This document shows positions 1-26,316 of a stretch of DNA of 50,644 bases, one piece after another; within the stretch, counting starts at the first letter, position 1, and the number at the start of each line of letters is the position of its first letter. Made by a program: the position numbers and the translations under genes. The stretch lies in the NCBI GenBank assembly GCA_034433775.1, contig DAOUAI010000149.1:1-50644 (forward strand), read 5' to 3'. The notes under the pieces are model-generated. The model saw only the letters and a program-made list of their open reading frames with translations. It did no database searches and was not told the DNA's origin. Origin of the DNA: Dehalococcoidia bacterium (lineage in GTDB: Bacteria > Chloroflexota > Dehalococcoidia > GIF9 > UBA5629).

Positions 1-2
1 GA

Positions 3-530
3 TTGTCAATAGATGAGCGGGCACGAATGGGGATCGGTGTCGCTTTACAGAGACCCCCGGTGGTGCGTGGTATAAAGACCAGAGATATGTTAGCTGCGTG
101 TATGGGAGAGCATGCCAGTGAGGAAGCTATTATCAGACTGGCACAAAAGGCTGACCTTATCGAATTTCTGGACAGAGAGGTGAATTACGGTTTTTCGGGC
201 GGCGAGACGAAGCGGTCGGAGCTTCTTCAGCTTCTGGCACAGGACCCTGAGCTGGCATTGCTAGATGAGCCAGAATCCGGCGTTGATTTGGTAAATATAG
301 CGCTTATTGGTGAGCTAGTTAACGAGTTATTGCATAAGGAGCATCCCATTCGTGAGCGAAAGCATTCCGGTCTTGTCATCACACATACCGGTCATATACT
401 GGAGTATGTGCATGCCCGTACTGGGTACGTACTCTTAGACGGGCGTATTGTATGTGAGGGTGACCCGTTAGAGATACTGGAGACGATAAAAAGAAAAGGT
501 TATGAGGAGTGCCGAAAATGCGCCATGTAG
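3..530 (+). CDS. sufC: Fe-S cluster assembly ATPase SufC (5' end outside window)
   Basis: ORF is open to the window edge. ABC signature FSGGETKRSELLQLL, Walker B LALLDEPESGVD and H-loop VITHTG are present. It overlaps the start of a SufB/D-family gene. Confidence 0.9.
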   Translation: MSIDERARMGIGVALQRPPVVRGIKTRDMLAACMGEHASEEAIIRLAQKADLIEFLDREVNYGFSGGETKRSELLQLLAQDPELALLDEPESGVDLVNIALIGELVNELLHKEHPIRERKHSGLVITHTGHILEYVHARTGYVLLDGRIVCEGDPLEILETIKRKGYEECRKCAM

Positions 531-1753
531 GTGAACCTAACCACCTCAAGAAGAAAGCTAGGGCAGCGGCAGCCAAACCGGCAGCTTTTGGTGAAGATGT
601 TGACTTGAGCAAGTACGAAGGGGCTTCGGAGGAATTGCCTTATCAGCAGGAACTATCGTTGTTGCCTGAAAATGTAAAAAAGCAAATGACTCAGGTTGGT
701 GTAGTGTCGGATAGTACTGACCAGCGTGCCGGGACCTTTATCCAGATGGACCACTCGGTGGTGCATAGCGTAGCGAAGCAAGAAGGGGTAGAGGTGATGG
801 GCTTCAGCCAGGCGGTAGAGAAATATGACTGGCTGAAGGAATATTTGTGGAAAGCGGTGGCGGTGGACACAGACAAATACACTGCCCATGTGGAACTTGG
901 TCAGAGCAACGGCTACTTCATTCGAGCGCTGCCCGGGAGCAAGGTGATATACCCGGTCCAGGCTTGCCTCTATATTGCCAAAGCCAGACTGGCACAAAAG
1001 GTGCACAATATCGTCATTGCGGAGGAGGGCTCGGAGTTACATATCATCACCGGCTGTACCAATGCTCCGAGGGGAGAGCCGGGACTGCATATCGGGGTCT
1101 CTGAGTTCTACGTAAAGCGTGGTGCTAAACTCACCTTCACTATGATACACAATTGGACGCCGGAGATAGCTGTCCGTCCCCGTACCGGCATAGTTATAGA
1201 AGAAGATGGGGTATTCTTGAGTAACTATGTTATTTTAAAGCCGGTGCACTCACTGCAAATGTACCCAGTGGCGTGGTGCGCTGGCGAAAACGCCATCGTC
1301 AGGTTCCACAGTATCCTCGTTGCCACCCCCGGCTCTACCATGGACGTTGGTTCCAGAGTGATGCTGGATGCTCCCAATTCAAGAGCAGAGGTGGTCTCGC
1401 GGGCGATAACCACCGGTGGGACGATTATTGCCCGCGGATATATTGAGGGCAACGCCCCTGATGTTAAAGGGCATCTCGAATGTCGGGGGTTGATTCTGGG
1501 CGAGTCGGGCATTATCCACGCAGTGCCGGAGCTTAGGGGCACTGTGCCAGGCGTGGACCTTTCTCACGAGGCGGCGGTGGGTAAGATAGCTGAGGAAGAG
1601 ATAGAGTATTTGATGATCCGCGGTCTGACACGTGATGAAGCAACGGCAGCCATTGTCAGGGGTTTTCTACGTGCAGGCATCGAGGGGCTGCCTGCGGAAC
1701 TTGATGCTGAGATCCAGCGTGCTATCGAGACCAGCGAACAGACGCTTCTTTAG
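518..1753 (+). CDS. sufB: Fe-S cluster assembly scaffold, SufB/SufD family
   Basis: About 410-aa ORF directly after sufC with SufB/D-like C-terminal repeat region (GxxxHIGVSEFYV..., ...EEEIEYLMIRGLTRDEA). GAGGAG lies 8 nt before ATG 518. GTG 509 is an alternative start. Confidence 0.85.
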   Translation: MRHVGEPNHLKKKARAAAAKPAAFGEDVDLSKYEGASEELPYQQELSLLPENVKKQMTQVGVVSDSTDQRAGTFIQMDHSVVHSVAKQEGVEVMGFSQAVEKYDWLKEYLWKAVAVDTDKYTAHVELGQSNGYFIRALPGSKVIYPVQACLYIAKARLAQKVHNIVIAEEGSELHIITGCTNAPRGEPGLHIGVSEFYVKRGAKLTFTMIHNWTPEIAVRPRTGIVIEEDGVFLSNYVILKPVHSLQMYPVAWCAGENAIVRFHSILVATPGSTMDVGSRVMLDAPNSRAEVVSRAITTGGTIIARGYIEGNAPDVKGHLECRGLILGESGIIHAVPELRGTVPGVDLSHEAAVGKIAEEEIEYLMIRGLTRDEATAAIVRGFLRAGIEGLPAELDAEIQRAIETSEQTLL

Positions 1754-1780
1754 GCGAAATTAATTTTAAGGGGGTGGACA

Positions 1781-2461
1781 GTGAATTTAAAGGCATTTTA
1801 CAAGTTAAGCTACGGGCTATACGTCGTAGGCTCCAAAAGGGATAGGAAACTCAACTGTCAGATCGCCAATACTGTTTTCCAGGTGTCTTCGGAGCCGCCC
1901 ACTATTGCCGTAGCCATCAACAAGAAGAACCTGACCCACGAGTTTATCACCAGCAGCAAGGTGTTCACTGTTTCTGTACTGTCGCAGGACACACCGCTGA
2001 GTTTTATCGGGGGCTTTGGCTTCAAATCAGGAAGAGAAGTGGACAAGCTTCAAGGGGTGAATTACAGGTCGGGCGTTACTGGGGCGCCGATAATACTGGA
2101 AAACACTTTGGCTTATCTGGAGGCAAAGGTGATTAACCAGATGGACTGCGGCACCCATACTTTGTTTCTGGGTGAGGTGGTCGAGGCTGATGTGATTAAA
2201 GAGGGCGAACCAATGACCTATGCCTATTATCATCAGGTAAAGCGTGGCAGCACGCCAAAGACCGCCCCCAGCTATGTCGAGGTAAAGGAGGCAGCACCCA
2301 AAATGGCAAAATACAGATGCACAGTTTGTAACTATGTTTATGACCCTGAAGTGGGCGACCCTGATGGCGGGATCAAACCGGGTACACCTTTTGAACAGCT
2401 ACCTGATAGCTGGGTATGTCCGGTCTGCGGAGCAAGCAAAGACCAGTTTGAAAAGATATAG
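1781..2461 (+). CDS. Flavin reductase domain fused to C-terminal rubredoxin (high-molecular-weight rubredoxin type)
   Basis: N-terminal FMN-binding split-barrel flavin-reductase-like sequence. C-terminal rubredoxin with CxxC...CxxC ([12 protein letters not shown]...[13 protein letters not shown]). GTG start with GGGGGTGG SD. Confidence 0.85.
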
Positions 2462-2469
2462 GAGGCAAG

Positions 2470-3687
2470 ATGGCTGAACACTTCGGGACTAACAAACGTG
2501 AGCTATTAAAGGAGTTGCTCAGAAAGTTACACAAAGGCGCTCCGCAGTCGGAGGTGGAAGCGGAATTCCGCAAACTGGCGAAAGGGGTGACGCCGGTGGA
2601 CATAGCCCAGGTAGAGGAAGAGCTTATCAAAGAGGGCATGCCGCGGGAGGAGATACAGAGGTTGTGCGATGTGCATCTGGCAGTGATGAGAGAGTCCCTA
2701 GAGAAGGAAAGGGTAGAGGTTCCCGCTGGACACCCGGTACATATCCTCATGGAGGAGCACCGGCTTCTTCTGGAGTTTGCTGGTAAGTTGAGAGAGGTAA
2801 CTGGCAAGATCAAGGACAGGGGGAGTATAAGCAATACCAGCTCAGAGATGGAACACCTGACACATATTGTCCAGCACCTTAAAGACTCGGAGAGCCATTA
2901 TATCAGGGAGGAGAACGTGCTTTTCCCTTCCCTGGAGAAACATGGCATCACCCAGCCGCCGGCGATAATGTGGATGGAGCACGACAGAATAAGGGGGATA
3001 AAAAAGGAATTGTATCAGGTGGTCGAAGCTGCGCAAAGCGCTGCCTTTTCAGATTTCATCAGCGGGCTCGGCCAGAAGGCGCTGGAACTGGCAGAGATGC
3101 TTTCCAGCCATTTCTTCAAGGAGAACAATATCCTTTTCCCTACAGCTCTTAAGGTGATCACTGAGCTGGAATGGCGTGATATCAGACACCAGTTTGACGA
3201 GCTGGGCTACTGCTGCTTTACCCCCGAGCCGGCCAGGGCTCCGTTTGCTCCAGCCGTAGTTGAGGCGCAGCCAGTCGCGATAGAGGGCGTAGTCTCATTG
3301 GAGACCGGCAGTTTCTCTTTAGAAGAACTGGAGGCGGTGCTCAATACCTTGCCGGTGGATATTACTTTTGTGGACAAAGACGACACTGTTCGCTATTTCA
3401 GTCAGTCCAGGGACAGGATCTTTGCCCGTACCAAAGCGGTCATCGGACGGAAGGTGCAGCAGTGCCATCCGCAGAAGAGCGTCCACGTGGTCAATCAGAT
3501 ACTCGAGGACTTCAGAGCAGGAAAGCGTGACGTAGCTGAGTTCTGGATAGACCTCAAAGGCAGACTAGTCTACATCAGGTATTTTGCGGTGCGCAGTAAA
3601 GCGGGCGAATATCTGGGCTGCCTTGAGGTGACCCAGGATATAACCGATATTAAGAAAATAGAAGGTGAGAAAAGGCTGCTGGACTGA
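2470..3687 (+). CDS. DUF438 / hemerythrin HHE cation-binding / PAS-like domain protein (putative O2/NO/iron sensor)
   Basis: N-terminal DUF438-like helix region. Central hemerythrin-like His/Glu repeats (HPVHILMEEH, WMEHD). C-terminal PAS-like block (DITFVDKDDTVRYFS...CHPQKSVHVV). Confidence 0.75.
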   Translation: MAEHFGTNKRELLKELLRKLHKGAPQSEVEAEFRKLAKGVTPVDIAQVEEELIKEGMPREEIQRLCDVHLAVMRESLEKERVEVPAGHPVHILMEEHRLLLEFAGKLREVTGKIKDRGSISNTSSEMEHLTHIVQHLKDSESHYIREENVLFPSLEKHGITQPPAIMWMEHDRIRGIKKELYQVVEAAQSAAFSDFISGLGQKALELAEMLSSHFFKENNILFPTALKVITELEWRDIRHQFDELGYCCFTPEPARAPFAPAVVEAQPVAIEGVVSLETGSFSLEELEAVLNTLPVDITFVDKDDTVRYFSQSRDRIFARTKAVIGRKVQQCHPQKSVHVVNQILEDFRAGKRDVAEFWIDLKGRLVYIRYFAVRSKAGEYLGCLEVTQDITDIKKIEGEKRLLD

Positions 3688-3726
3688 CACAGTTCCAGTG
3701 CAGGTGGGCCTGAAAGGAGTGGAGAG

Positions 3727-4911
3727 ATGAGACCGAGGGAGATCAGGAGAGGTATCTACTGGGTGGGGGCGGTTGACTGGGACAGGAGATTGTTTGATTC
3801 ACTGATACCATTGCCCGATGGCACCAGCTATAACTCGTATCTAATCCAGGGCAGTGAGAGGACAGCCCTCATAGATGCCGTTGACCCTACCATGGAGCGG
3901 GTGCTTTTGGAGAACCTGAAGGCACTGGGTGTAGAAAGGCTTGATTATGTTATTGCCAACCATGCTGAGCAGGACCATGCCGGTGCTATCCCGGCGGTGC
4001 TGGCAAAATATTCTGAGGCGAAGGTAGTTTGTACCCCGAGATGCAAGGGGATGCTCATCGACCTGCTGATGGTCGGCGAAGACAGGTTCATAACCGTGGA
4101 AGATAAAGAGACCATATCCCTGGGAGGCAGGACACTGGAGTTTATTCATGCCCCATGGGTGCACTGGCCGGAAACGATGCTTACCTATCTAAGTGAGGAG
4201 AAGATTCTGTTCCCCTGCGATTTCTTCGGTTCCCACTTAGCCACCAGCGATTTATACGTCACCGATGAAGGGCAGGTATACGAAGCAGCAAAACGGTACT
4301 ACGCCGAAATCATGATGCCTTTCCGTACCACCATCCAGAAAAACCTGGAAAGAGTGAAGGGATACGACATCGATATCATCGCCCCGAGTCACGGTCCGCT
4401 ATATGATAAGCCGGAATTTATCCTGAAGGCTTATCATGGCTGGGCATTTGATGAGCCGAAAAACATAGTGGTGCTACCCTATGTGTCCATGCACGCCAGC
4501 ACGAAGCGGATGGTGGAGCATTTTGTGGGCGCACTGGTGGAGAGGGGGATAACGGTGAAGCAGTTCGATTTGCCGGTGACCGATATAGGGAAGCTGGCTA
4601 TGGCGCTGGTGGACGCCGCTACTATTGTTATCGGGACACCCACGGTCTTGGGTGGGGCGCATCCTGCAGCAGCTTATGCTGCTTTCCTGGCGAATGCGCT
4701 GCGACCCAACGTGAAATTCGCTTCCATCATAGGTTCCTATGGCTGGGGCGGCAAAACTGTAGATCAACTTACCGGGATGCTGAGCAATGTAAAAGTGGAG
4801 TTACTGCCACCGGTTTTAGTGAAAGGCTACCCTCGGGAAGCAGATTTCAAGGCGCTCGATGACCTTGCTGAGATGGTCAGGCAGAAACACCAGGCTACCG
4901 GTGTGGTGTGA
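3727..4911 (+). CDS. fprA: Flavodiiron protein (FprA / rubredoxin:oxygen or NO oxidoreductase): metallo-beta-lactamase-like plus flavodoxin domains
   Basis: Diiron motif HAEQDHAG, conserved WVHWPE and FSCDFFG-like blocks, and a C-terminal flavodoxin-like domain (VVLPYVSMHASTKRM). Confidence 0.9.
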   Translation: MRPREIRRGIYWVGAVDWDRRLFDSLIPLPDGTSYNSYLIQGSERTALIDAVDPTMERVLLENLKALGVERLDYVIANHAEQDHAGAIPAVLAKYSEAKVVCTPRCKGMLIDLLMVGEDRFITVEDKETISLGGRTLEFIHAPWVHWPETMLTYLSEEKILFPCDFFGSHLATSDLYVTDEGQVYEAAKRYYAEIMMPFRTTIQKNLERVKGYDIDIIAPSHGPLYDKPEFILKAYHGWAFDEPKNIVVLPYVSMHASTKRMVEHFVGALVERGITVKQFDLPVTDIGKLAMALVDAATIVIGTPTVLGGAHPAAAYAAFLANALRPNVKFASIIGSYGWGGKTVDQLTGMLSNVKVELLPPVLVKGYPREADFKALDDLAEMVRQKHQATGVV

Positions 4912-4935
4912 AAAATAAACGAAAAGGAGGTAGAA

Positions 4936-5538
4936 ATGAGTGGTGTACAGGTAGGTAAAGAGGCACCGGACTTTAAAGCACGCGCGTACCACGAGGGTAG
5001 AGCGAAGGATATCAAGCTTTCCGATTACCGCGGCAAATGGGTGATGTTATGCTTCTATCCCGGCGATTTCACTTTCGTTTGACCGACGGAACTGTCGGCA
5101 GTTGCCGCCAGATACGCTGAATTTCAGGAGCTGGGTGTGGAGGTGCTTTCTATCAGCGTGGACAGCATATTTTCCCACAAGATCTGGCAGGAGGAGGAGC
5201 TTTCTAAGATGGTAGAAGGAGGCGTGCCCTTCCCCATGGTGTCCGACCCCGGAGGAAAAATCGGCTCACTTTATGGCGTGTACGATGAGGAAACCGGGGT
5301 GAACGTCAGAGGGCGTTTTCTCATCGACCCTAATGGCATCATTCAGGCTATGGAGGTGCTGACGCCGCCGGTGGGACGCAATGTTGCTGAAACGCTCAGG
5401 CAGATAAAGGCTTACCAGCACCATCAGGCTACCGGTGAAGTCATGCCCTCCGGCTGGCAGCCAGGTAAGCCAACTTTGAAACCGGGCATGAAGCTAGCGG
5501 GCAAGGTGTGGGAGGTGTGGAACCCTAAAATGGAGTAA
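4936..5538 (+). CDS. Peroxiredoxin (AhpC/Prx1 type) with in-frame UGA at the peroxidatic position; predicted selenocysteine peroxiredoxin (200 aa)
   Basis: ATG 4936 follows AAGGAGG. The frame is open to TGA 5080-5082 and continues in the same frame as track ORF 5137..5538. Translation reads ...[24 protein letters not shown]..., so the stop replaces the Cys of the universal FTFVCPTE motif. A hairpin lies directly downstream. Confidence 0.8.
5083..5111 (+). promoter_or_regulatory. Candidate bacterial SECIS element directly 3' of the UGA
   Basis: There are two mutually exclusive hairpins. The first is CCGAC-GGAACU-GUCGG (5083-5098). The second is CUG[U]CGGC-AGUU-GCCG[C]CAG (5092-5111), whose apical loop starts 18 nt after the UGA and contains G/U. 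Confidence 0.45.
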
Positions 5539-5541
5539 TTT

Positions 5542-5841
5542 GTGAGCATGAAGGCGAAACTCTGGGTAGACCAGAAGCCGGTAGAGATGAACCGTTTTGT
5601 GGAAGACCTGCTATGGCGGGTTGTTGTGGCTGCGGTCTCAGCTCTTAAAGGCACAGAAAATATGCGTGAGATAGATATCCGTCTCGAGAAAGAGGAAGTT
5701 ACCGTCGCTGTGAACGGACAGAGTATTCCGCTGAACGCGTTCACCAGCGAGGTCATTGCTAACACTTTACGGGGTCTGGTGTCATCGCTCAAAGGGGTCG
5801 GCGATACCAGTAGAGTAAGCATCAGCGTGGAAATTGGGTAA
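5542..5841 (+). CDS. Hypothetical protein, 99 aa, Cys-free
   Basis: ORF fills the gap between prx (3 nt upstream) and copA (ATG 1 nt after its stop). GTG start. I recognise no motif. Confidence 0.55.
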
Positions 5842-5842
5842 A

Positions 5843-8284
5843 ATGGCGACTAAACGGTCTGTCTTCCGTGTACACGGAATGACCTGTGCCTCTTGTGTTG
5901 CACGGGTGGAAAAGTCCCTATCGGAAGTACCGGGAGTGACGCTGGCTAATGTCAATCTGGCTTCAGAGACGGCTCTCGTCGAGTATAGCGATGGTACCAG
6001 CGTAGCTGAACTGAAACGGGCGGTAGCGGATGCAGGTTACGAGCTGGGAATGGAGGTGGATGTTGAAAGTGGAGGACTTTCTCCTGCGGGCGAGTTACGC
6101 AGATTAAAAATAAAGCTCGCTATAGCGCTTTCCCTTGCAGCCATAGTGATGGCGCTGACCATGGGGTTTGATTTCCCAGGTAAACCGTACTTGCTCTGGG
6201 TACTGGCAACTCCTGTGCAATTCTGGGCGGGGTGGCAGTTCTATCGTGGGGCATGGGGGGCGCTCAAGCACCGAACTGCTGATATGAACATGCTTATAGC
6301 CGTAGGAACATCGGCAGCTTATTTCTACAGCGTGGTGGTGGTTATCGCCCCGCAGGTGTTCGCAGGCACCAGAATGACACCTGAGGTCTATTTTGACACA
6401 TCTTCCACAATAATCGCCCTTGTTCTGCTGGGGCGCTTTCTGGAGTCCAGGGCGAAGGGGCAGACATCTGAGGCGATAAAAAAGCTTATCGGCTTGAGAC
6501 CGGACAAAGCGGTCGTCATTAGAGAGGGGGTGGAACATGAGGTTGCGGTGGAGGATTTGCAGGTTGGAGATATCGTCTTGGTGCGCCCCGGGGAACGGGT
6601 GCCTGTAGATGGCACCGTGGTACAGGGATATTCCACAGTCGATGAGTCCATGATTACCGGTGAAAGTCTACCTGTGGAGAAGAAGGCGGGTGATACGGTT
6701 ATCGGGGGTACGATCAATTTGACCGGTAGCTTTCAATTCGAAGCGACGCGGGTGGGCAAGGACACTATGCTGGCTCGTATTATCAGGATGGTAGAGGAGG
6801 CACAGGGGAGCAAGGCACCGGTGCAACGTCTGGCAGATGTCATTGCCAGCTATTTTGTGCCGGCAGTGGTGGGGGTGGCTATTGTTACATTCATCGTCTG
6901 GTCTTTTCTTGGACCGGAGCCGGCTGTGACGCATGCTTTGCTTAACTTTGTGGCCGTTCTTATCATCGCCTGTCCCTGTGCTCTGGGGCTGGCCACGCCG
7001 ACTGCTATTATCGTCGGTACTGGCAAAGGCGCTGAGAACGGTGTCCTTATCCGTAGCGGTGAAGCACTGGAGATAATGCACAAGGTGGACTGTATGCTGT
7101 TTGATAAGACAGGCACCTTGACGATCGGCAGACCTGTGGTCACAGATATTGTGCCTGTGCCACCGTTTACTGGGGACGAAGTCTTGCGATTGGCAGCTTC
7201 GGCAGAGCGCAACTCGGAGCATCCATTGGCTGAGGCTGTGGTCAAGGCGGCTTCGGCGAAGGGGCTAGCCCTTCTCGAGGTTTCTCATTTCACTGCCATG
7301 CCAGGTCATGGTGTGGAAGCCAGTCTGAACGGCAAGCGACTCCTCGTCGGCAATCTGGCTCTGATGCGTGAACATGGTTTACCGCTGGACAGCGTTGTCA
7401 CAGTGGCTGAGCAATTGTGGGAGCAGGGCAGGACAGTGCTATTTCTAGTCGTGGATGGTAACTTAGCCGGTGTTATAGCACTTGCTGATACTTTGAAGCC
7501 CGAGGCGAAGGAAGTGGTCGGAATGCTCCATGAAATGGGCATCGAGGTGGCGATGCTCACCGGTGATAATGTCCGGGCTGCCGATGCGATAGCTCGCGAG
7601 GCGGGCATTGACCGTGTGCTGGCAGAGGTGCTTCCGGAGAACAAAGCTCTGGAAGTACAAAGGCTGCGTGACGAAGGGAAGGTGGTAGCGATGGTGGGTG
7701 ACGGCATCAACGATGCCCCTGCACTGGCTCAGGCAGATGTTGGCGTTGCTATAGGCACTGGCACCGATATCGCTATGGAGGCGGGTGACATAGTACTCGT
7801 CAGCGGCGACCTGCGTGGCGTTGTCACCGCGGTATCTTTAAGCCGTCGCACCATGCGCACCATAAAACAGAACCTCTTCTGGGCGTTCGCTTATAATACG
7901 GCTCTGATACCGGTGGCGGCTGGGGTGCTGTATCCTGCCTTTCAAGCTCAGGGGGTGCCGATGGCACTCCGCTTTGCTCTGGGGGAGTATGGCTTTTTGA
8001 ATCCGGTACTGGCGGCGGTGGCTATGGCTGCCAGCTCCATTACAGTAGTGCTTAACTCGTTGCGCTTGAAAGGTTTCAAGCCAGCTAGGACTGAAATAGC
8101 TGAGAAAGGAGGTGAACAGATGGCAGTCGATCCGGTGTGCAAGATGGAAGTGAAAGAGAAGGAAGCGGCAGCGACATCTGAATACAAAGGCAAAAAGTAC
8201 TACTTCTGTGCCTTAGCCTGCAAAAAAGCCTTTGACCAGAACCCGGAGAAATATCTTGCCCCAGAAGTACCTAGACGCAGGTGA
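5843..8284 (+). CDS. copA: Copper-translocating P1B-type ATPase with N-terminal HMA domain and C-terminal YHS/TRASH domain
   Basis: [11 protein letters not shown] ([13 protein letters not shown]), DKTGTLT and GDGINDAP are present. The C-terminal tail is VDPVCKMEV...[15 protein letters not shown] 5843 is preferred over TTG 5834. Confidence 0.95.
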
Positions 8285-8301
8285 GGGATATAGGGGTATT
8301 C

Positions 8302-8320
8302 AGATAGCCGTGAGCTATCT
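8302..8320. repeat. Perfect 7-5-7 inverted repeat AGATAGC-cgtga-GCTATCT between copA and the ferritin-like gene
   Basis: Read directly from the sequence. No T-run follows, so it could be an operator or a weak terminator stem. Confidence 0.3.
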
Positions 8321-8353
8321 ACAAAAAGAGATTATTTGCTGGAGGTAGAAAGT

Positions 8354-9193
8354 ATGGACAAAGAAAAGGTCATCGCTTTGCTGAACGAAGACCTTGAGGG
8401 CGAACACGGGGCTATTATTCAGTACCTTATCCATGCCTATGCTATGGGCGAAGGGGAACTTGCCTGCGAGATCGAAGCTATTGCCAGGGAGGAGATGCGT
8501 CATTTCGATTGGCTGGCTGAGGTGATAGTGGAGCTTGGTGGCAAGCCCAGCCTGAAGCGTGGCACGATGCGAATGGGGGGTAAAACGGTGAGTGAGTGGA
8601 TGGAGCAAGACGTACTTTTAGAGAAGGACGCTATTTCCATGTATCAAGAGCATATCAAGGCTATCGATGATCCCAAGATAAAGAGAGTGCTTCAGCGCAT
8701 CCTTTCTGACGAGAAATCCCACCACGACGACTTTCAGCATTTCGTAGAGAAGGCAAGACAGGAAGGGCTCAAGGATATCAGGGGTGAGCGCAAAGACAAG
8801 GTTACCAAGGTGCTGGACTGGGGCATAGAGCATGAGTACACGGTGATACTCCAGTACCTTTTCCATTCATACATGGCTAAGAATAAGGAAATAAAGAAAC
8901 AGATGGAAGACCAGGCGATAAACGAGATGCAACATCTGGGATGGCTAGCTGAGGAACTGGTCGGAGGGGGTGGCAGCCCCAGGATCGAGCACACTGAGGT
9001 GGACCGGTCTACTAAAGAGGCTGAGATGCTCAAAGCTGATATCGAAATTGAGAAAAAGGTGGCAGCCGAATATGACCGAGCGGCCAAGGAGATACCTGAT
9101 GAAAAACTGAAGAAGCTGCTTCTGCGCATCCGGGACCATGAGATTTACCACACCGATATCTTCAGCGACCTTTTGAAGGATGTGGAAAAGTAA
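8354..9193 (+). CDS. Tandem ferritin-like (bacterioferritin/rubrerythrin-type) diiron four-helix-bundle protein
   Basis: Two repeats, each with E...ExxH...E...ExxH. Repeat 1 has EGEHGAIIQYL, EEMRHFDWL, EKDAISMY and DEKSHH. Repeat 2 has EHEYTVILQYL, NEMQHLGWL, IEKKVAAEY and DHEIYH. GGAGGT lies 7 nt before ATG 8354. Confidence 0.75.
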   Translation: MDKEKVIALLNEDLEGEHGAIIQYLIHAYAMGEGELACEIEAIAREEMRHFDWLAEVIVELGGKPSLKRGTMRMGGKTVSEWMEQDVLLEKDAISMYQEHIKAIDDPKIKRVLQRILSDEKSHHDDFQHFVEKARQEGLKDIRGERKDKVTKVLDWGIEHEYTVILQYLFHSYMAKNKEIKKQMEDQAINEMQHLGWLAEELVGGGGSPRIEHTEVDRSTKEAEMLKADIEIEKKVAAEYDRAAKEIPDEKLKKLLLRIRDHEIYHTDIFSDLLKDVEK

Positions 9194-9222
9194 TCATAAG
9201 GCAAGACTGAAAGGAGGTAGAG

Positions 9223-9348
9223 ATGGCAAAAGTTACTGGTGTAGGGCAGGTGTTCAGGTGTAGTATCTGCGGTAATGTGGTCGAGGTTAAAGTGGTGGGT
9301 GGGGGCGAGCTGGTCTGCTGCGGCAAACCGATGGAACTGCAAAAATAA
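9223..9348 (+). CDS. Desulforedoxin (41 aa; too short for the ORF track)
   Basis: Translation is [41 protein letters not shown]. It carries the CxxC...CC Fe(Cys)4 motif and closely resembles D. gigas desulforedoxin and the Dfx N-domain as I recall them. AAGGAGG lies 6 nt upstream. Confidence 0.75.
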
Positions 9349-9364
9349 GTTCGGAGGTGAAGTA

Positions 9365-9943
9365 ATGGCTTATCAGGCTAAAGACTACAGTAAGCTAGTT
9401 GGCATGGAGGGGTTTAGCGAGACATTGCTCAAGAACCATTTCACCCTATATCAGGGGTATGTGACCAGTACCAACAGACTGATGGACAGTCTATCTGCCA
9501 TGCTCAAGGAGGGCAAGCAGGGGACACCAGAGTATGCTGAGCTCAAGCGGCGGTTGGGCTGGGAGTTCAATGGTATGAGGTTGCACGAATATTACTTTGA
9601 AAATCTCGGTGGAAAGGGGTCATTGAACAAATCGAGCAAATTAGCTAGCAAGCTGGCGGAGGGCTTCGGTAGCTATGAGGACTGGGAAAAGGAGTTCAAA
9701 GCGTGTGGGACGATGCGAGGTATCGGCTGGGTCGTCCTTTATCAGGACAACATCACCGGGAAATTGTTCAACCAATGGATAAATGAACACGATGTGGGTC
9801 ATCCTGCTGGTTGTATACCCATACTGGTAATGGATGTTTTTGAGCATGCCTTTATGATTGACTACGGGCTCAAAAGGGCTGACTACATAGAGGCTTTCTT
9901 CCGCAATATCGATTGGGGCACAGTCGAGGGTAGATTAAGGTAG
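9365..9943 (+). CDS. Fe/Mn-family superoxide dismutase
   Basis: SOD blocks LLKNHFTLYQGYV, EFNGMRLHEYYF and DVFEHAFMIDY (Asp/His ligands). ATG 9365 follows GGAGGTG. The 9275 start in the track would overlap the desulforedoxin gene. Confidence 0.85.
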   Translation: MAYQAKDYSKLVGMEGFSETLLKNHFTLYQGYVTSTNRLMDSLSAMLKEGKQGTPEYAELKRRLGWEFNGMRLHEYYFENLGGKGSLNKSSKLASKLAEGFGSYEDWEKEFKACGTMRGIGWVVLYQDNITGKLFNQWINEHDVGHPAGCIPILVMDVFEHAFMIDYGLKRADYIEAFFRNIDWGTVEGRLR

Positions 9944-9958
9944 GTACGGAGTATTAAG

Positions 9959-10309
9959 ATGGGCGAGTTTGTTCGAGTAGGAGTAATTGGCGATTTCGCG
10001 GAAGGTGTGATGAAAGAGGTCAAGGTAAGGGACAAAGAAGTCCTGGTGGTCATGTCTGGGGGCAAATTCTACGCTGCCGCTGCTCGTTGTCCGCATATGG
10101 GTGGCAGGCTGGTACAGGGTAAACTTGAGGGCACGGTGGTCACCTGTCCATTACATGGCTCACAGTTCGACCTTACTGATGGGCATGTGGTCCGCTGGCT
10201 TAAAGGTTCAGGTGCACTTTCCGCAATAGGTAAGGCTATGAAAGGTCCCAAGGGACTGGACGCCTATAATATTAAGGTGGAAGGTGACACAGTCCTCGTA
10301 GAATTGTGA
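9959..10309 (+). CDS. Stand-alone Rieske [2Fe-2S] domain protein
   Basis: CPHMGGRL...CPLHGSQFDL (CxH...CxxH). Confidence 0.85.
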   Translation: MGEFVRVGVIGDFAEGVMKEVKVRDKEVLVVMSGGKFYAAAARCPHMGGRLVQGKLEGTVVTCPLHGSQFDLTDGHVVRWLKGSGALSAIGKAMKGPKGLDAYNIKVEGDTVLVEL

Positions 10310-10385: not shown

Positions 10386-11045
10386 TCAGCCCTCTAGATG
10401 ATAACTGAGGGTGTCCAAGAACCAGCGGTTATCTTTAAGCACTTTGCCTGTCGTAGTAAGCTCGATCTTTTTCTTGAAGATGGGACCGTTGATTACCAGA
10501 GTATGGTATTCGCCGTTCTCACCGCAGAGGTCGATATTTTTACTTTTAAGATAGTCCAGAAAAACTCTAGACACAGGTTGCCCCACCCATTCCGGATCGA
10601 TTATGTCCGCTTGAGCGCTGACCACCACTGCCTCGAAGCCGTTGTCTATAAAAGTGTGGGGCACTTTTTCCGTCGTCCACCCCCACAGTGGTTCCAGAGC
10701 TTTGATACCCAGTTCTCCACAGACCCGCTCCACCCACTGCTTATGTTCCTCGAGGTATATATCGCCGAAGACCATACCTTCTATGCCTTTGGGAATAAGG
10801 CTGCTGACCGCCTGCTTGAATGCCGGCTCGTAGTCATCCCAAGATGTCTCCTGTTGCAGGAGCGGGATACCTAGAGCTTCACTCTGCAACTGGATTAGTC
10901 TGGCCTCGGTGCCATGGAAACTCACCCTTTGGAACTCTCTGGAGATGAAATTTACCAGATGGGAGACATAGTACCCCTGCCGTATAGCCTCAAAACACGC
11001 AAGACAACTATCTTTTCCTCCGCTCCAGGAAACGATATAACTCAT
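10386..11045 (-). CDS. Dph6/MJ0570-related ATP pyrophosphatase (diphthine-ammonia ligase-like N-type ATP-PPase domain)
   Basis: PP-loop SWSGGKDS at the N-terminus and about 220 aa in length. Overall resemblance to the MJ0570 family. Confidence 0.75.
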   Translation of the reverse strand: MSYIVSWSGGKDSCLACFEAIRQGYYVSHLVNFISREFQRVSFHGTEARLIQLQSEALGIPLLQQETSWDDYEPAFKQAVSSLIPKGIEGMVFGDIYLEEHKQWVERVCGELGIKALEPLWGWTTEKVPHTFIDNGFEAVVVSAQADIIDPEWVGQPVSRVFLDYLKSKNIDLCGENGEYHTLVINGPIFKKKIELTTTGKVLKDNRWFLDTLSYHLEG

Positions 11046-17805: not shown

Positions 17806-18855
17806 ATGATAGAGATAGATGGTTCAGTGAAATCTGGCAGCGGCACTTTGCTGCGCTATGCAGTGAGCCTGGCCACCCTACTTGGCGAGGAACTCCATAT
17901 GTGGAACATCAGGGCTGCCAGAGAGAAGCCCGGTCTGCGCCATCAGCACCGCCAAGCTATGTTGGCTTGTTGTGAGTTCTCTCAGGGCTATGTTGAAGGT
18001 GCCACCCTGGGTTCGACGGAGGTATGGTATAAACCTGGGAAGAGGGTGGAGGGAGGTGATTATCGCTGGGACATAGGCACTGGCGGCTCCACTACTATGT
18101 TAGCCATGACCTTGTTGCCAGTGGCATGTTTTGCCACCAGTCCATCGACCTTTACCATATCTGGAGGGCTGTTCCAGGACTTCGCACCATCAGCTTATCA
18201 TATGAAGCACGTCCTTTTTGCTTTCTTGAGCGAAATGGGCATACATGCTGGGCTGGAAATCAAACGTCCTGGCTATGCTGAGCAGGGTGGCGGCATGATC
18301 GATGTGAGTGTGAGCCCGGTAGATGGTGCAATCAAAGCGGTCAAGACTGATAAACGCACAGCGATTTCAAATATTCGCGGTGTGGCTATATGCTCTCACC
18401 TAAGTGCCTCCAGGGTCAGCGAGCGGATGGCGCGGGAATGTGAGCGTTTGCTAAAGGGAGGTGGCTACAGCGCTAAAATTGAAGTGGTCTACGATGATAC
18501 TGCTGCCCATCCCGGTGCTGCTCTGGCTATTTGGGTAGAAGGCGCTGGTTGCCATCTCGGTTCGGATATGGCGGGCAAGAAAGGTAGACGTGCCGAAAAC
18601 ATAGGAAGGCAGGTAGCTAGCAACTTGATCGAGGACATTAATTCTGGGGCTACAGTTGATAGGTTTTTAGGCGACCAGGTGGTGCTTTACGCTGCCCTAG
18701 CAGAAGGGGTCACTGAGTATCTGATACCACACATGACCGACCATATCGAGGCCAACCTGTGGTTGGTAGAGCAGGTGCTGGGTAAATTTGGTGCCCGGAC
18801 GGAAGTGACGGGTAATCGGGTGAGAATAAAGGGCATAGGCTATTTAAAGAGGTAA
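17806..18855 (+). CDS. rtcA: RNA 3'-terminal phosphate cyclase
   Basis: MIEIDGSxxSGSGTLLRYAVSLA...NIRAAREKPGLRHQH N-terminus and C-terminal DQVVLYAAL...MTDHIEANLWLVEQ, typical of RtcA. Confidence 0.9.
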   Translation: MIEIDGSVKSGSGTLLRYAVSLATLLGEELHMWNIRAAREKPGLRHQHRQAMLACCEFSQGYVEGATLGSTEVWYKPGKRVEGGDYRWDIGTGGSTTMLAMTLLPVACFATSPSTFTISGGLFQDFAPSAYHMKHVLFAFLSEMGIHAGLEIKRPGYAEQGGGMIDVSVSPVDGAIKAVKTDKRTAISNIRGVAICSHLSASRVSERMARECERLLKGGGYSAKIEVVYDDTAAHPGAALAIWVEGAGCHLGSDMAGKKGRRAENIGRQVASNLIEDINSGATVDRFLGDQVVLYAALAEGVTEYLIPHMTDHIEANLWLVEQVLGKFGARTEVTGNRVRIKGIGYLKR

Positions 18856-24876: not shown

Positions 24877-26316
24877 ATGAGGAAAATTTCAAGGACTATA
24901 TCTGGAGTAACCCCGGTAGCCGTTATGGCTAAGCCATCCGGCTGCCCCGGTAGATGTGTCTACTGCCCTGATTTCCCTGATATCCCGAAAAGCTATACGC
25001 CGGAATCACCAGCGGTGCTGAGAGCCAAAGCTTGTGATTACGACCCCAAGAAGCAGGTTGAGTTCAGGCTTAAGACGCTTTCTGCCATGGGGCATCCCGC
25101 AGACAAGGTAGAGCTTATAATAATGGGCGGTACCTTTCTAGCCTGTCCTGAGGACTACCAGTACCAGTTTGTAAAAGACTGCTACGATGCGCTTAACGGC
25201 TATGAGTCGCCAAATTTGGAAGCTGCTAAGAAAATTAACGAAAACGCCAGGCATCGGTGTGTTGGGCTGTGTATAGAGACCAGGCCAGACCGCTGTAGCG
25301 CAGAGGATATAGGACGGATGCTGGAGTTCGGCACCACCAGGGTGGAGCTGGGAGTCCAGACGCTGGACGATGAGATATATCGTTTGGTGAAGCGAGGACA
25401 TAGTGTAGCTGATGTGATTGAAGCGACTCGCCTTCTGAAGGACTGTGGTCTCAAGGTCTATTATCATTGGATGCCAGGTCTTCCCGGTTCGACTTCTGAG
25501 CATGACCTGGAACTGACAAACAGATTGTTCGATGACGTCAGCTTTAAGCCCGATGGGCTGAAGCTTTATCCTACTTTGGTGATAGCTGGTACAGAGCTGG
25601 AAAAATGGTACCGGAGCGGTTGTTATCGCCCTTACAGCATGGACGAGCTAGTGGGGTTGATGATAGGTATTAAGACACAGATCCCGGACTATGTCCGGGT
25701 TGCACGGGTGATGCGTGATATCCCCGATAGGTACATTGTTGCCGGCTGTAAAGATTTGGCGCTGCGGGGTTCCCTTAAGAAGAGGATGGCAGAGATAGGG
25801 GTAAATTGCCGCTGTGTCCGCTGTCGTGAATACGGACATCGGGCAAGGGATGGCTGGAAAATAGGCGACCCCGAATTGAAAAGGCTGGATTACGTGGCAT
25901 CAGACGGGCGTGAAGTATTTCTCTCTTTTGAAGATGGCGAGGGGACGTTGTTTGCTCTATTACGAATGAGATTCAGTGATTCCGTGATAGGCGCTGGTGA
26001 TGCTGCTATAATTCGGGAACTGCATGTTTTTGGGGCTGAGGTCCCGCTGGGAGAGCGAAGGGACATGGCTGTCCAGCATAGGGGGCTGGGAAAGCAATTA
26101 CTTCGTGAGGCTGAGGACATTGCCCGACGGGAATTCGGAGCTTCTAGAATGGCAATCATAAGCGGGGTTGGCGCCAGGGAGTACTTTCGTTCTGAATCTG
26201 GTTATGAACTTGATGGCGCCTATATGGTGAAAGACCTAGGTCTACCGTCTGTGGAACACGAGAAAGTCCGGCAGGACACCAATTTTGTAGTCAAAATAAC
26301 AAGCCCCCTTTCCTGA
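24877..26316 (+). CDS. elp3: Elp3-family tRNA U34 carboxymethyl-modification enzyme (radical SAM plus GNAT domains)
   Basis: Radical SAM cluster motif CPGRCVYCP. Elp3 core blocks VELIIMGGTF, TRVELGVQTLDDEIY and YHWMPGLPGS. C-terminal GNAT acetyl-CoA motif QHRGLGKQLL. Confidence 0.9.
   Translation: MRKISRTISGVTPVAVMAKPSGCPGRCVYCPDFPDIPKSYTPESPAVLRAKACDYDPKKQVEFRLKTLSAMGHPADKVELIIMGGTFLACPEDYQYQFVKDCYDALNGYESPNLEAAKKINENARHRCVGLCIETRPDRCSAEDIGRMLEFGTTRVELGVQTLDDEIYRLVKRGHSVADVIEATRLLKDCGLKVYYHWMPGLPGSTSEHDLELTNRLFDDVSFKPDGLKLYPTLVIAGTELEKWYRSGCYRPYSMDELVGLMIGIKTQIPDYVRVARVMRDIPDRYIVAGCKDLALRGSLKKRMAEIGVNCRCVRCREYGHRARDGWKIGDPELKRLDYVASDGREVFLSFEDGEGTLFALLRMRFSDSVIGAGDAAIIRELHVFGAEVPLGERRDMAVQHRGLGKQLLREAEDIARREFGASRMAIISGVGAREYFRSESGYELDGAYMVKDLGLPSVEHEKVRQDTNFVVKITSPLS

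Follow-up and report, generated by a model that had tools for sequence, protein, structure and literature searches.

A TGA-interrupted peroxiredoxin gene in a Dehalococcoidia contig: a predicted selenocysteine enzyme of the PrxU family

Introduction

Does the TGA at positions 5080–5082 of a Dehalococcoidia contig end a short peptide, or does it encode the catalytic residue of a peroxiredoxin? The window analyzed here is the whole 50,644-nt stretch of contig DAOUAI010000149.1 (GenBank assembly GCA_034433775.1), and the locus in question is positions 4936–5538 on its forward strand, which the open reading frame (ORF) listing cuts in two: a frame of 48 aa at 4936–5082 and one of 133 aa at 5137–5538, with a GTG start at 5137. 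An earlier note on this DNA had proposed that both belong to one gene for a peroxiredoxin of the PrxU type, in which selenocysteine (Sec) takes the place of the catalytic cysteine and which ORF calling splits. We found that the family score, the conservation of the TGA, the selection acting on both sides of it, and a hairpin downstream of it agree with that proposal. We put the probability at about 0.93 that a single gene, prxU, spans 4936–5538 and that its product is a peroxiredoxin of 200 residues with the Prx1/AhpC fold and Sec (U49) as the peroxidatic residue.

Results and discussion

A peroxiredoxin gene that continues through a TGA

The prxU start codon, ATG at 4936–4938, lies 5 nt downstream of a Shine-Dalgarno sequence, AAGGAGG, which we read at 4924–4930 on the same strand; the three closest relatives likewise have an AGGAGG box ahead of their start codon. 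As the earlier note had described, the frame opens with MSGVQ, runs through FTFV to the TGA at 5080–5082, and resumes in the same frame, and the sequence and its translation agreed with this on every point. From there the frame continues to a TAA at 5536–5538. The coding sequence (4936–5538, forward strand) thus comprises 200 sense codons, with residue 49 read as Sec, and the TGA, which falls within PGDFTFV-U-PTE, is its sole interruption.

With Cys put at the TGA, the translated protein matched the Pfam family AhpC-TSA (3.4e-41) plus 1-cysPrx_C, and solved Prx1, Prx2, and AhpC structures in the PDB matched it over almost its whole length at 1e-41 to 1e-53, with Prx1 and Prx2 at 1e-50 to 1e-53. 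The same substitution gave 366.4 bits against NF040737 (peroxi_PrxU), the NCBIfam equivalog model of the PrxU family, for which the cut-off is 270, while the next NCBIfam family, AhpC (TIGR03137), reached 193 bits and remained under its cut-off of 272. Because the protein stands above the PrxU cut-off and below that of AhpC, it falls within the curated PrxU family and is not a generic peroxiredoxin interrupted by a stop, and it agreed with PrxU membership in every respect that was tested. The existence of a dedicated NCBI model tempers the view that standard annotation misses such enzymes, though gene callers do split the gene or read its TGA as Trp. For annotation, the locus is best called as one 200-residue selenoprotein, with a transl_except for Sec at 5080–5082, instead of as pieces of 48 and 133 aa, and it should not carry the active-site Trp that appears in many metagenome gene calls.

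The TGA falls on the catalytic column of the fold, where the earlier note had placed it. When aligned to solved structures, P42-G-D-F-T46-F-V-U49 sets the TGA column at the peroxidatic Cys of FTFVCPTE in human PRDX2 and others, and the predicted U49 (5080–5082, forward strand) closes the motif P42-x3-T46-x2-U49. The active-site residues Pro42, Thr46, and Arg125 are all in place in these structure alignments, with Arg125 (RGxFxID; 5308–5310, forward strand) aligning to the Arg of RGLFIID in PRDX2 and AcePrx-1.

Conservation of the TGA and selection on both sides of it

Orthologs were sought in one genome per species (GTDB representatives), and we compared the 79 closest loci, the nearest three of which were 95, 93, and 93% identical and came from metagenome-assembled genomes (MAGs) of Dehalococcoidia/Chloroflexota. 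A TGA occupied the same codon in 78 of these 79 loci, and TGC in one. The loci were spread over at least five phyla (Chloroflexota, Desulfobacterota/Syntrophia, Actinomycetota, Firmicutes, and Sumerlaeota), and in this clade of peroxiredoxins, Sec forms prevail over Cys forms among anaerobes from several phyla. One deltaproteobacterial MAG contig (L030) carried two Sec-form prxU genes about 5 kb apart (L030:791 and L030:6133), both with the TGA and with the hairpin described below.

Among the best 120 homologs in the protein databases, about 40 had Cys at this column and about 80 had 'W'. Cys-form homologs of the family carry TGC or TGT at this position, and the one 'W' homolog that we checked at the DNA level (L001) has TGA; on short contigs, gene callers translate this TGA as Trp, hence the 'W'. 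In two other close database homologs, P0032 and P0043, the catalytic column holds Arg (FTFVRPTE) or Ser (FTFVSATE), for which an inactive gene copy, a sequencing error, or a TGA that was mutated or misread may account.

Codon changes relative to the three closest relatives, which are 93–95% identical, were mostly silent. Roughly a third to almost half of the codons differ. Before the TGA, 15–16 of the changes were synonymous and 6–9 non-synonymous; after it, 40–60 were synonymous and 3–8 non-synonymous. The scattered stops or frameshifts that the earlier note would have taken as signs of a pseudogene were absent from all three relatives, in which the gene is intact. With a synonymous excess on both sides and the frame unbroken, the locus does not behave as a pseudogene or two unrelated ORFs would, and these comparisons argue for purifying selection both upstream and downstream of the TGA.

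Across the window, more genes end in TGA (19 of 47) than in either other stop, and the TGA of prxU is the only one in frame among 15,904 codons, compared with 214 occurrences of TGG; therefore, this organism does not use UGA as a general sense codon. A scan of the window for other TGA-interrupted genes yielded no credible one. The TGA was also reproduced in an independent assembly, a Logan contig from SRR11582153 that is 100% identical over 3,888 bp (window positions 1727–5614), TGA included, and on which the gene caller likewise splits prxU into 48 and 133 residues.

A conserved hairpin downstream of the TGA

Two alternative hairpins, at 5083–5098 and 5092–5111, had been drawn directly downstream of the UGA in the earlier note, which judged the second compatible with the geometry of a bacterial selenocysteine insertion sequence (SECIS) element. 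Both can indeed be drawn, but conservation and covariation were found for the second and not for the first. The hairpin at 5092–5111 (forward strand) is built from a lower stem (5092–5094/5109–5111), a U/C mismatch (5095/5108), an apical stem of CGGC paired with GCCG (5096–5099/5104–5107), and an AGUU tetraloop (5100–5103) whose G lies 18 nt after the UGA, which places the loop G-U at 18–19 nt.

We compared this hairpin in an alignment of 77 Sec-form sequences, with six Cys-form homologs as controls. The apical stem was intact in 75 of the 77 Sec-form sequences versus two of the six controls, and the loop conformed to RGUY in all but one Sec-form sequence (AGUU in 66, GGUC in 9, and GGUU in 1) while drifting in the Cys forms. 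Double changes were present in five of the eight pairs, a level of covariation that none of 500 shuffles reached, and slid controls were lower. RNAalifold returned the 4-bp apical stem with its tetraloop as the sole consensus structure. Most telling is the pair 5097/5106, where both bases are synonymous third positions (NNG codons for Ser, Thr, or Ala, and GCC for Ala) and the combinations were G-C in 70 sequences and A-U, U-A, and G-U in two each: bases that change together at synonymous sites point to a constraint on the RNA and not on the protein. By these comparisons, 5092–5111 is a conserved, covarying hairpin at SECIS distance and a putative SECIS.

The hairpin at 5083–5098 was rejected as a SECIS, given that it showed no covariation and that four of its six pairs were broken in 16–37 of 76 sequences. 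A different arrangement was seen in a Candidatus Sumerlaeota MAG (L078:6130-6180), where the TGA is kept without CGGC-RGUY-GCCG and a 7-bp stem, CCCACGG...CCGUGGG, begins 3 nt after the UGA; this stem may be a different SECIS solution within the same gene family.

The best-known bacterial counterpart, the SECIS of Escherichia coli fdhF, is a SelB-binding hairpin with an apical GGUC loop, a G-U about 18–20 nt after the UGA, and a bulge below a short G+C-rich stem, a geometry that was reportedly worked out by Liu et al. in 1998 and by Huttenhofer et al. The prxU hairpin resembles it in its place inside the gene, immediately downstream of the UGA, in its RGUY loop, with GGUC itself in 9 of the 77 orthologs, in the spacing between the UGA and the loop G-U, and in having an interruption below a short G+C-rich apical stem. 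It differs in having an apical stem of 4 bp, a U/C mismatch (paired in some orthologs) in place of the single bulged U, and AGUU as the loop of most members, and SelB binding is putative here.

Selenocysteine and the alternatives

Several observations weigh against a Sec-containing product and its SECIS. Searches of the 50-kb window with ARAGORN, Rfam, and NCBIfam (the last on 47 ORFs) did not find selA, selB, selD, or tRNA-Sec, and the only tRNAs that ARAGORN and Rfam detected there were tRNA-Arg and tRNA-His; an ARAGORN search for tRNA-Sec only, across 791 kb of orthologous flanks, also found none. Rfam gave no SECIS-type match at the gathering threshold over the whole window or at the E-value threshold over 5040–5160. 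Single-sequence folding was no better than that of shuffled sequences, with z = +0.21 for 5075–5140, the region that the earlier note had singled out for folding, and z = -1.03 for 5080–5118; the hairpins can be drawn, but with the stability of a shuffled sequence, so that thermodynamics alone is no evidence and we used the comparative data instead. In those data, the loop G and U are positions 1–2 of a conserved Val codon, which makes their invariance partly a protein-level constraint, and only a few Cys-form controls were available (n = 6). That this protein incorporates selenium and acts as a peroxidase, and with which reductant, are predictions from its sequence.

The alternative that survives best, though we consider it very improbable, is that a SECIS/SelB-like system recodes the UGA but inserts Cys, through a tRNA-Sec-like tRNA charged with Cys, or that near-cognate Trp or Cys read-through occurs at a low level, such that the product is no selenoprotein. 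Sequence alone cannot separate Sec from another residue at a recoded UGA, the Sec machinery was not found in the 50-kb window, and natural recoding of Sec codons is reportedly discussed in work by Mukai et al. that PMC5424206 cites. However, Cys forms of the family simply use TGC or TGT, and an enzyme with Trp as its catalytic residue would have no activity and so would not persist in 78 of 79 species. Dehalococcoidia are also documented as heavy Sec users: Chloroflexi were recorded as using Sec by 2006 (PMC1794560), and BSepDB credits MAGs of Dehalococcoidia with 46 and 49 selenoproteins, which puts them with the richest bacteria (PMC13326102). Moreover, Sec incorporation has been shown biochemically in the PrxU family, according to PMC13188914, which cites Sohling 2001. 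Read as a Sec codon, the TGA of prxU implies that the Dehalococcoidia-like anaerobe from which the window comes uses Sec.

A pseudogene, or a TGA that arose as a sequencing or assembly error from TGC or TGT, would account for the splitting of the gene by ORF calling and would require a change of only one base. We regard this explanation as effectively refuted, given that the TGA recurs in 78 of 79 orthologs across phyla, that synonymous changes prevail on both sides without frameshifts or extra stops, that the independent assembly is identical, and that a conserved, covarying hairpin follows.

It is also highly implausible that the locus yields two products, one a peptide of 48 residues that stops at the UGA and the other a protein of 133 residues initiated at the GTG at 5137. 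Both ORFs exist and are called separately on the Logan contig, but neither is a complete peroxiredoxin fold, and the split would leave the main part of the enzyme without its catalytic residue and without Pro42 and Thr46. On reading the sequence, we noted no ribosome-binding site before 5137, and the 18 codons between the two pieces (5083–5136) are conserved in frame in all orthologs.

Finally, the 'W' that about 80 of the 120 database homologs show might suggest a genetic code in which UGA specifies Trp or Gly (codes 4/25). This reading is refuted by the use of TGA as the stop of 19 window genes, by its single in-frame occurrence against 214 TGG codons, and by the origin of the 'W' as a gene-calling artifact on short contigs.

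Cysteines of the protein and a proposed catalytic cycle

At the column of the C-terminal resolving Cys of typical 2-Cys peroxiredoxins, the protein has Met170 (5443–5445, forward strand): alignment to PRDX2 and AcePrx-1 changes EVCP to EVMP, and the window reads EVMPSGW versus EVCPAGW in the solved structures. The earlier note had remarked on this replacement, which proved to be characteristic of the family, as the column is non-Cys in 72 of the 79 Sec-form orthologs (M in 47, T in 19, L in 3, I in 2, and A in 1), with C in 3 and 4 unscored. Because the C-terminal resolving Cys is absent, the intersubunit disulfide cycle of Prx1/AhpC enzymes, between the peroxidatic and resolving Cys, is excluded. 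The protein shares the Prx1/AhpC fold but stands outside the 2-Cys mechanistic class.

The sole Cys of the protein is Cys39 (LCFYP; 5050–5052, forward strand), ten residues before the Sec in the ortholog alignment. A Cys at this -10 position was found in all 79 Sec-form orthologs and in 75 of the 83 database homologs with a scorable motif, Sec and Cys forms pooled, whereas typical Prx1/AhpC enzymes have Phe there in the structure alignment. This pattern makes Cys39 a candidate selenenylsulfide partner of U49. It may even be the resolving residue of the PrxU family, acting through an intramolecular selenenylsulfide with U49, though we hold this to be unlikely; to our knowledge, no characterized peroxiredoxin subfamily has its resolving residue at the position of Cys39. 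In that case, PrxU would count as atypical, a '2-Cys-like' Sec/Cys peroxiredoxin and not one of the 1-Cys type, and this would explain how the family could lose its C-terminal Cys.

A second Cys, two residues before the Sec (FTCV-U, or CxU), accompanies the Cys at -10 in 17 of the 79 Sec-form orthologs (L006, L007, L009-L011, L014, L017, L019, L020, L025, L031, L033, L035, L043, L048, L061, and L064), and the window has Phe at this position.

We propose that the hairpin at 5092–5111 acts in the mRNA as the SECIS, where SelB with Sec-tRNA(Sec) would bind and deliver Sec when the UGA is in the A site, as in the established bacterial pathway (summarized in PMC9312934). The selenolate of U49 would then attack H2O2 or an organic hydroperoxide and be converted to a selenenic acid, as the Pro42/Thr46/U49/Arg125 site and peroxiredoxin chemistry suggest. 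Because the C-terminal resolving Cys is absent, the enzyme might be recycled either directly by an external thiol protein, which would be thioredoxin according to the family name, or via a selenenylsulfide with Cys39. The earlier note had inferred a reductant other than the usual one; the NCBIfam family name says thioredoxin-dependent.

Comparison with known peroxiredoxins

In PMC13188914 and PMC9312934, Sec peroxiredoxins with a TxxU motif are counted among the experimentally verified prokaryotic selenoproteins, after Sohling et al. 2001 on PrxU of Eubacterium (Peptoclostridium) acidaminophilum. By 2006, twelve Sec peroxiredoxins had been catalogued from Deltaproteobacteria, Clostridia, and Actinobacteria (PMC1794560). 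The window gene is an instance of this already known kind: earlier work had established the family, where its Sec lies, and how the UGA is recoded.

Compared through the NF040737 family model and not pairwise, the window protein and E. acidaminophilum PrxU belong to the same family, have Sec for the peroxidatic Cys in PxxxTxxU, lack the C-terminal resolving Cys, and occur in the context of oxidative stress in strict anaerobes. They differ in host, a clostridial Firmicute versus a Chloroflexota/Dehalococcoidia-like organism here. The sole departure of the window protein from the model is that it is without an N-terminal extension of about 34 residues, its match starting at model position 35. 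An in-frame extension of about 35 residues was present in 24 of the 79 orthologs and absent from the window and its three closest relatives, in which prxU starts right after the ribosome-binding site. Where present, the extension carries a conserved C-x-x-P-A-K-G-P, which also occurs in database homologs such as P0005–P0007.

With typical 2-Cys peroxiredoxins such as PRDX1/2 and Salmonella AhpC, the window protein shares the fold, the active-site residues, and the peroxidatic position. Unlike them, it is predicted to have Sec for the peroxidatic Cys, and it has Met at the resolving column and Cys in place of Phe at -10.

Genomic neighborhood

The prxU gene lies in a cluster of oxygen-, metal-, and iron-stress genes at 1–10309, all on the forward strand. 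Besides prxU, the cluster encodes SufC, a SufB/D-like protein, a flavin reductase-rubredoxin fusion, a DUF438-hemerythrin-PAS protein, a flavodiiron protein, an ORF of 99 codons (ORF99), CopA, a ferritin-like protein of 285 aa with two matched ferritin-like stretches, a superoxide dismutase-like protein, and a Rieske ferredoxin. This content fits the oxygen and peroxide defense set of a Dehalococcoidia-like (Chloroflexota) anaerobe.

Directly upstream of prxU, across a gap of 24 nt, is the flavodiiron protein gene (3727–4911, forward strand), which was recognized by flavorubredoxin-type NCBIfam matches and by Pfam Lactamase_B/ODP on the identical Logan contig. The two genes are probably co-transcribed, and a flavodiiron homolog occurs within 4.5 kb of prxU on the same strand in 14–15 other loci. 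They also share one reading frame, parted by the TGA stop at 4909–4911 plus eight codons, which is probably a coincidence given the Shine-Dalgarno sequence and ATG between them.

Downstream, ORF99 (5542–5841, forward strand) follows after 3 nt and overlaps copA by 8 nt. It matches the C-terminal part of MobB/FeS-domain proteins weakly in NCBIfam, and its homologs adjoin prxU in only two other loci. We rejected ORF99 as a redox partner on account of this rarity, its lack of any Cys, and its lack of a Pfam family. The copA gene itself (5834–8284, forward strand) encodes a copper-exporting P-type ATPase that scored above the cut-off for NCBIfam TIGR01525/TIGR01511. The earlier placing of prxU in an oxygen-defense setting between the flavodiiron gene and copA therefore stands for the setting and the upstream neighbor, but on the other side ORF99 sits between prxU and copA.

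At other loci, the commonest neighbors of prxU were flavodiiron, ferritin-like, pyridine-nucleotide-disulfide oxidoreductase, flavin reductase-rubredoxin, Fur/PerR-like, desulfoferrodoxin-like, and rubrerythrin genes, names that are our reading of cluster sequences except where they match family-scanned genes of the window. The ORF that we took, on its sequence, to resemble a pyridine-nucleotide-disulfide oxidoreductase is found upstream in 11 loci and is absent from the window.

Beyond the cluster, the window holds three genes of kinds that are usual in archaea or eukaryotes, here in a bacterial setting: a diphthine-ammonia-ligase-like ATP pyrophosphatase at 10386–11045 on the reverse strand, which scored below cut-off, an RNA 3'-phosphate cyclase at 17806–18855 on the forward strand, and an Elp3 radical-SAM/GNAT tRNA-modification enzyme at 24877–26316 on the forward strand, which scored 569 bits.

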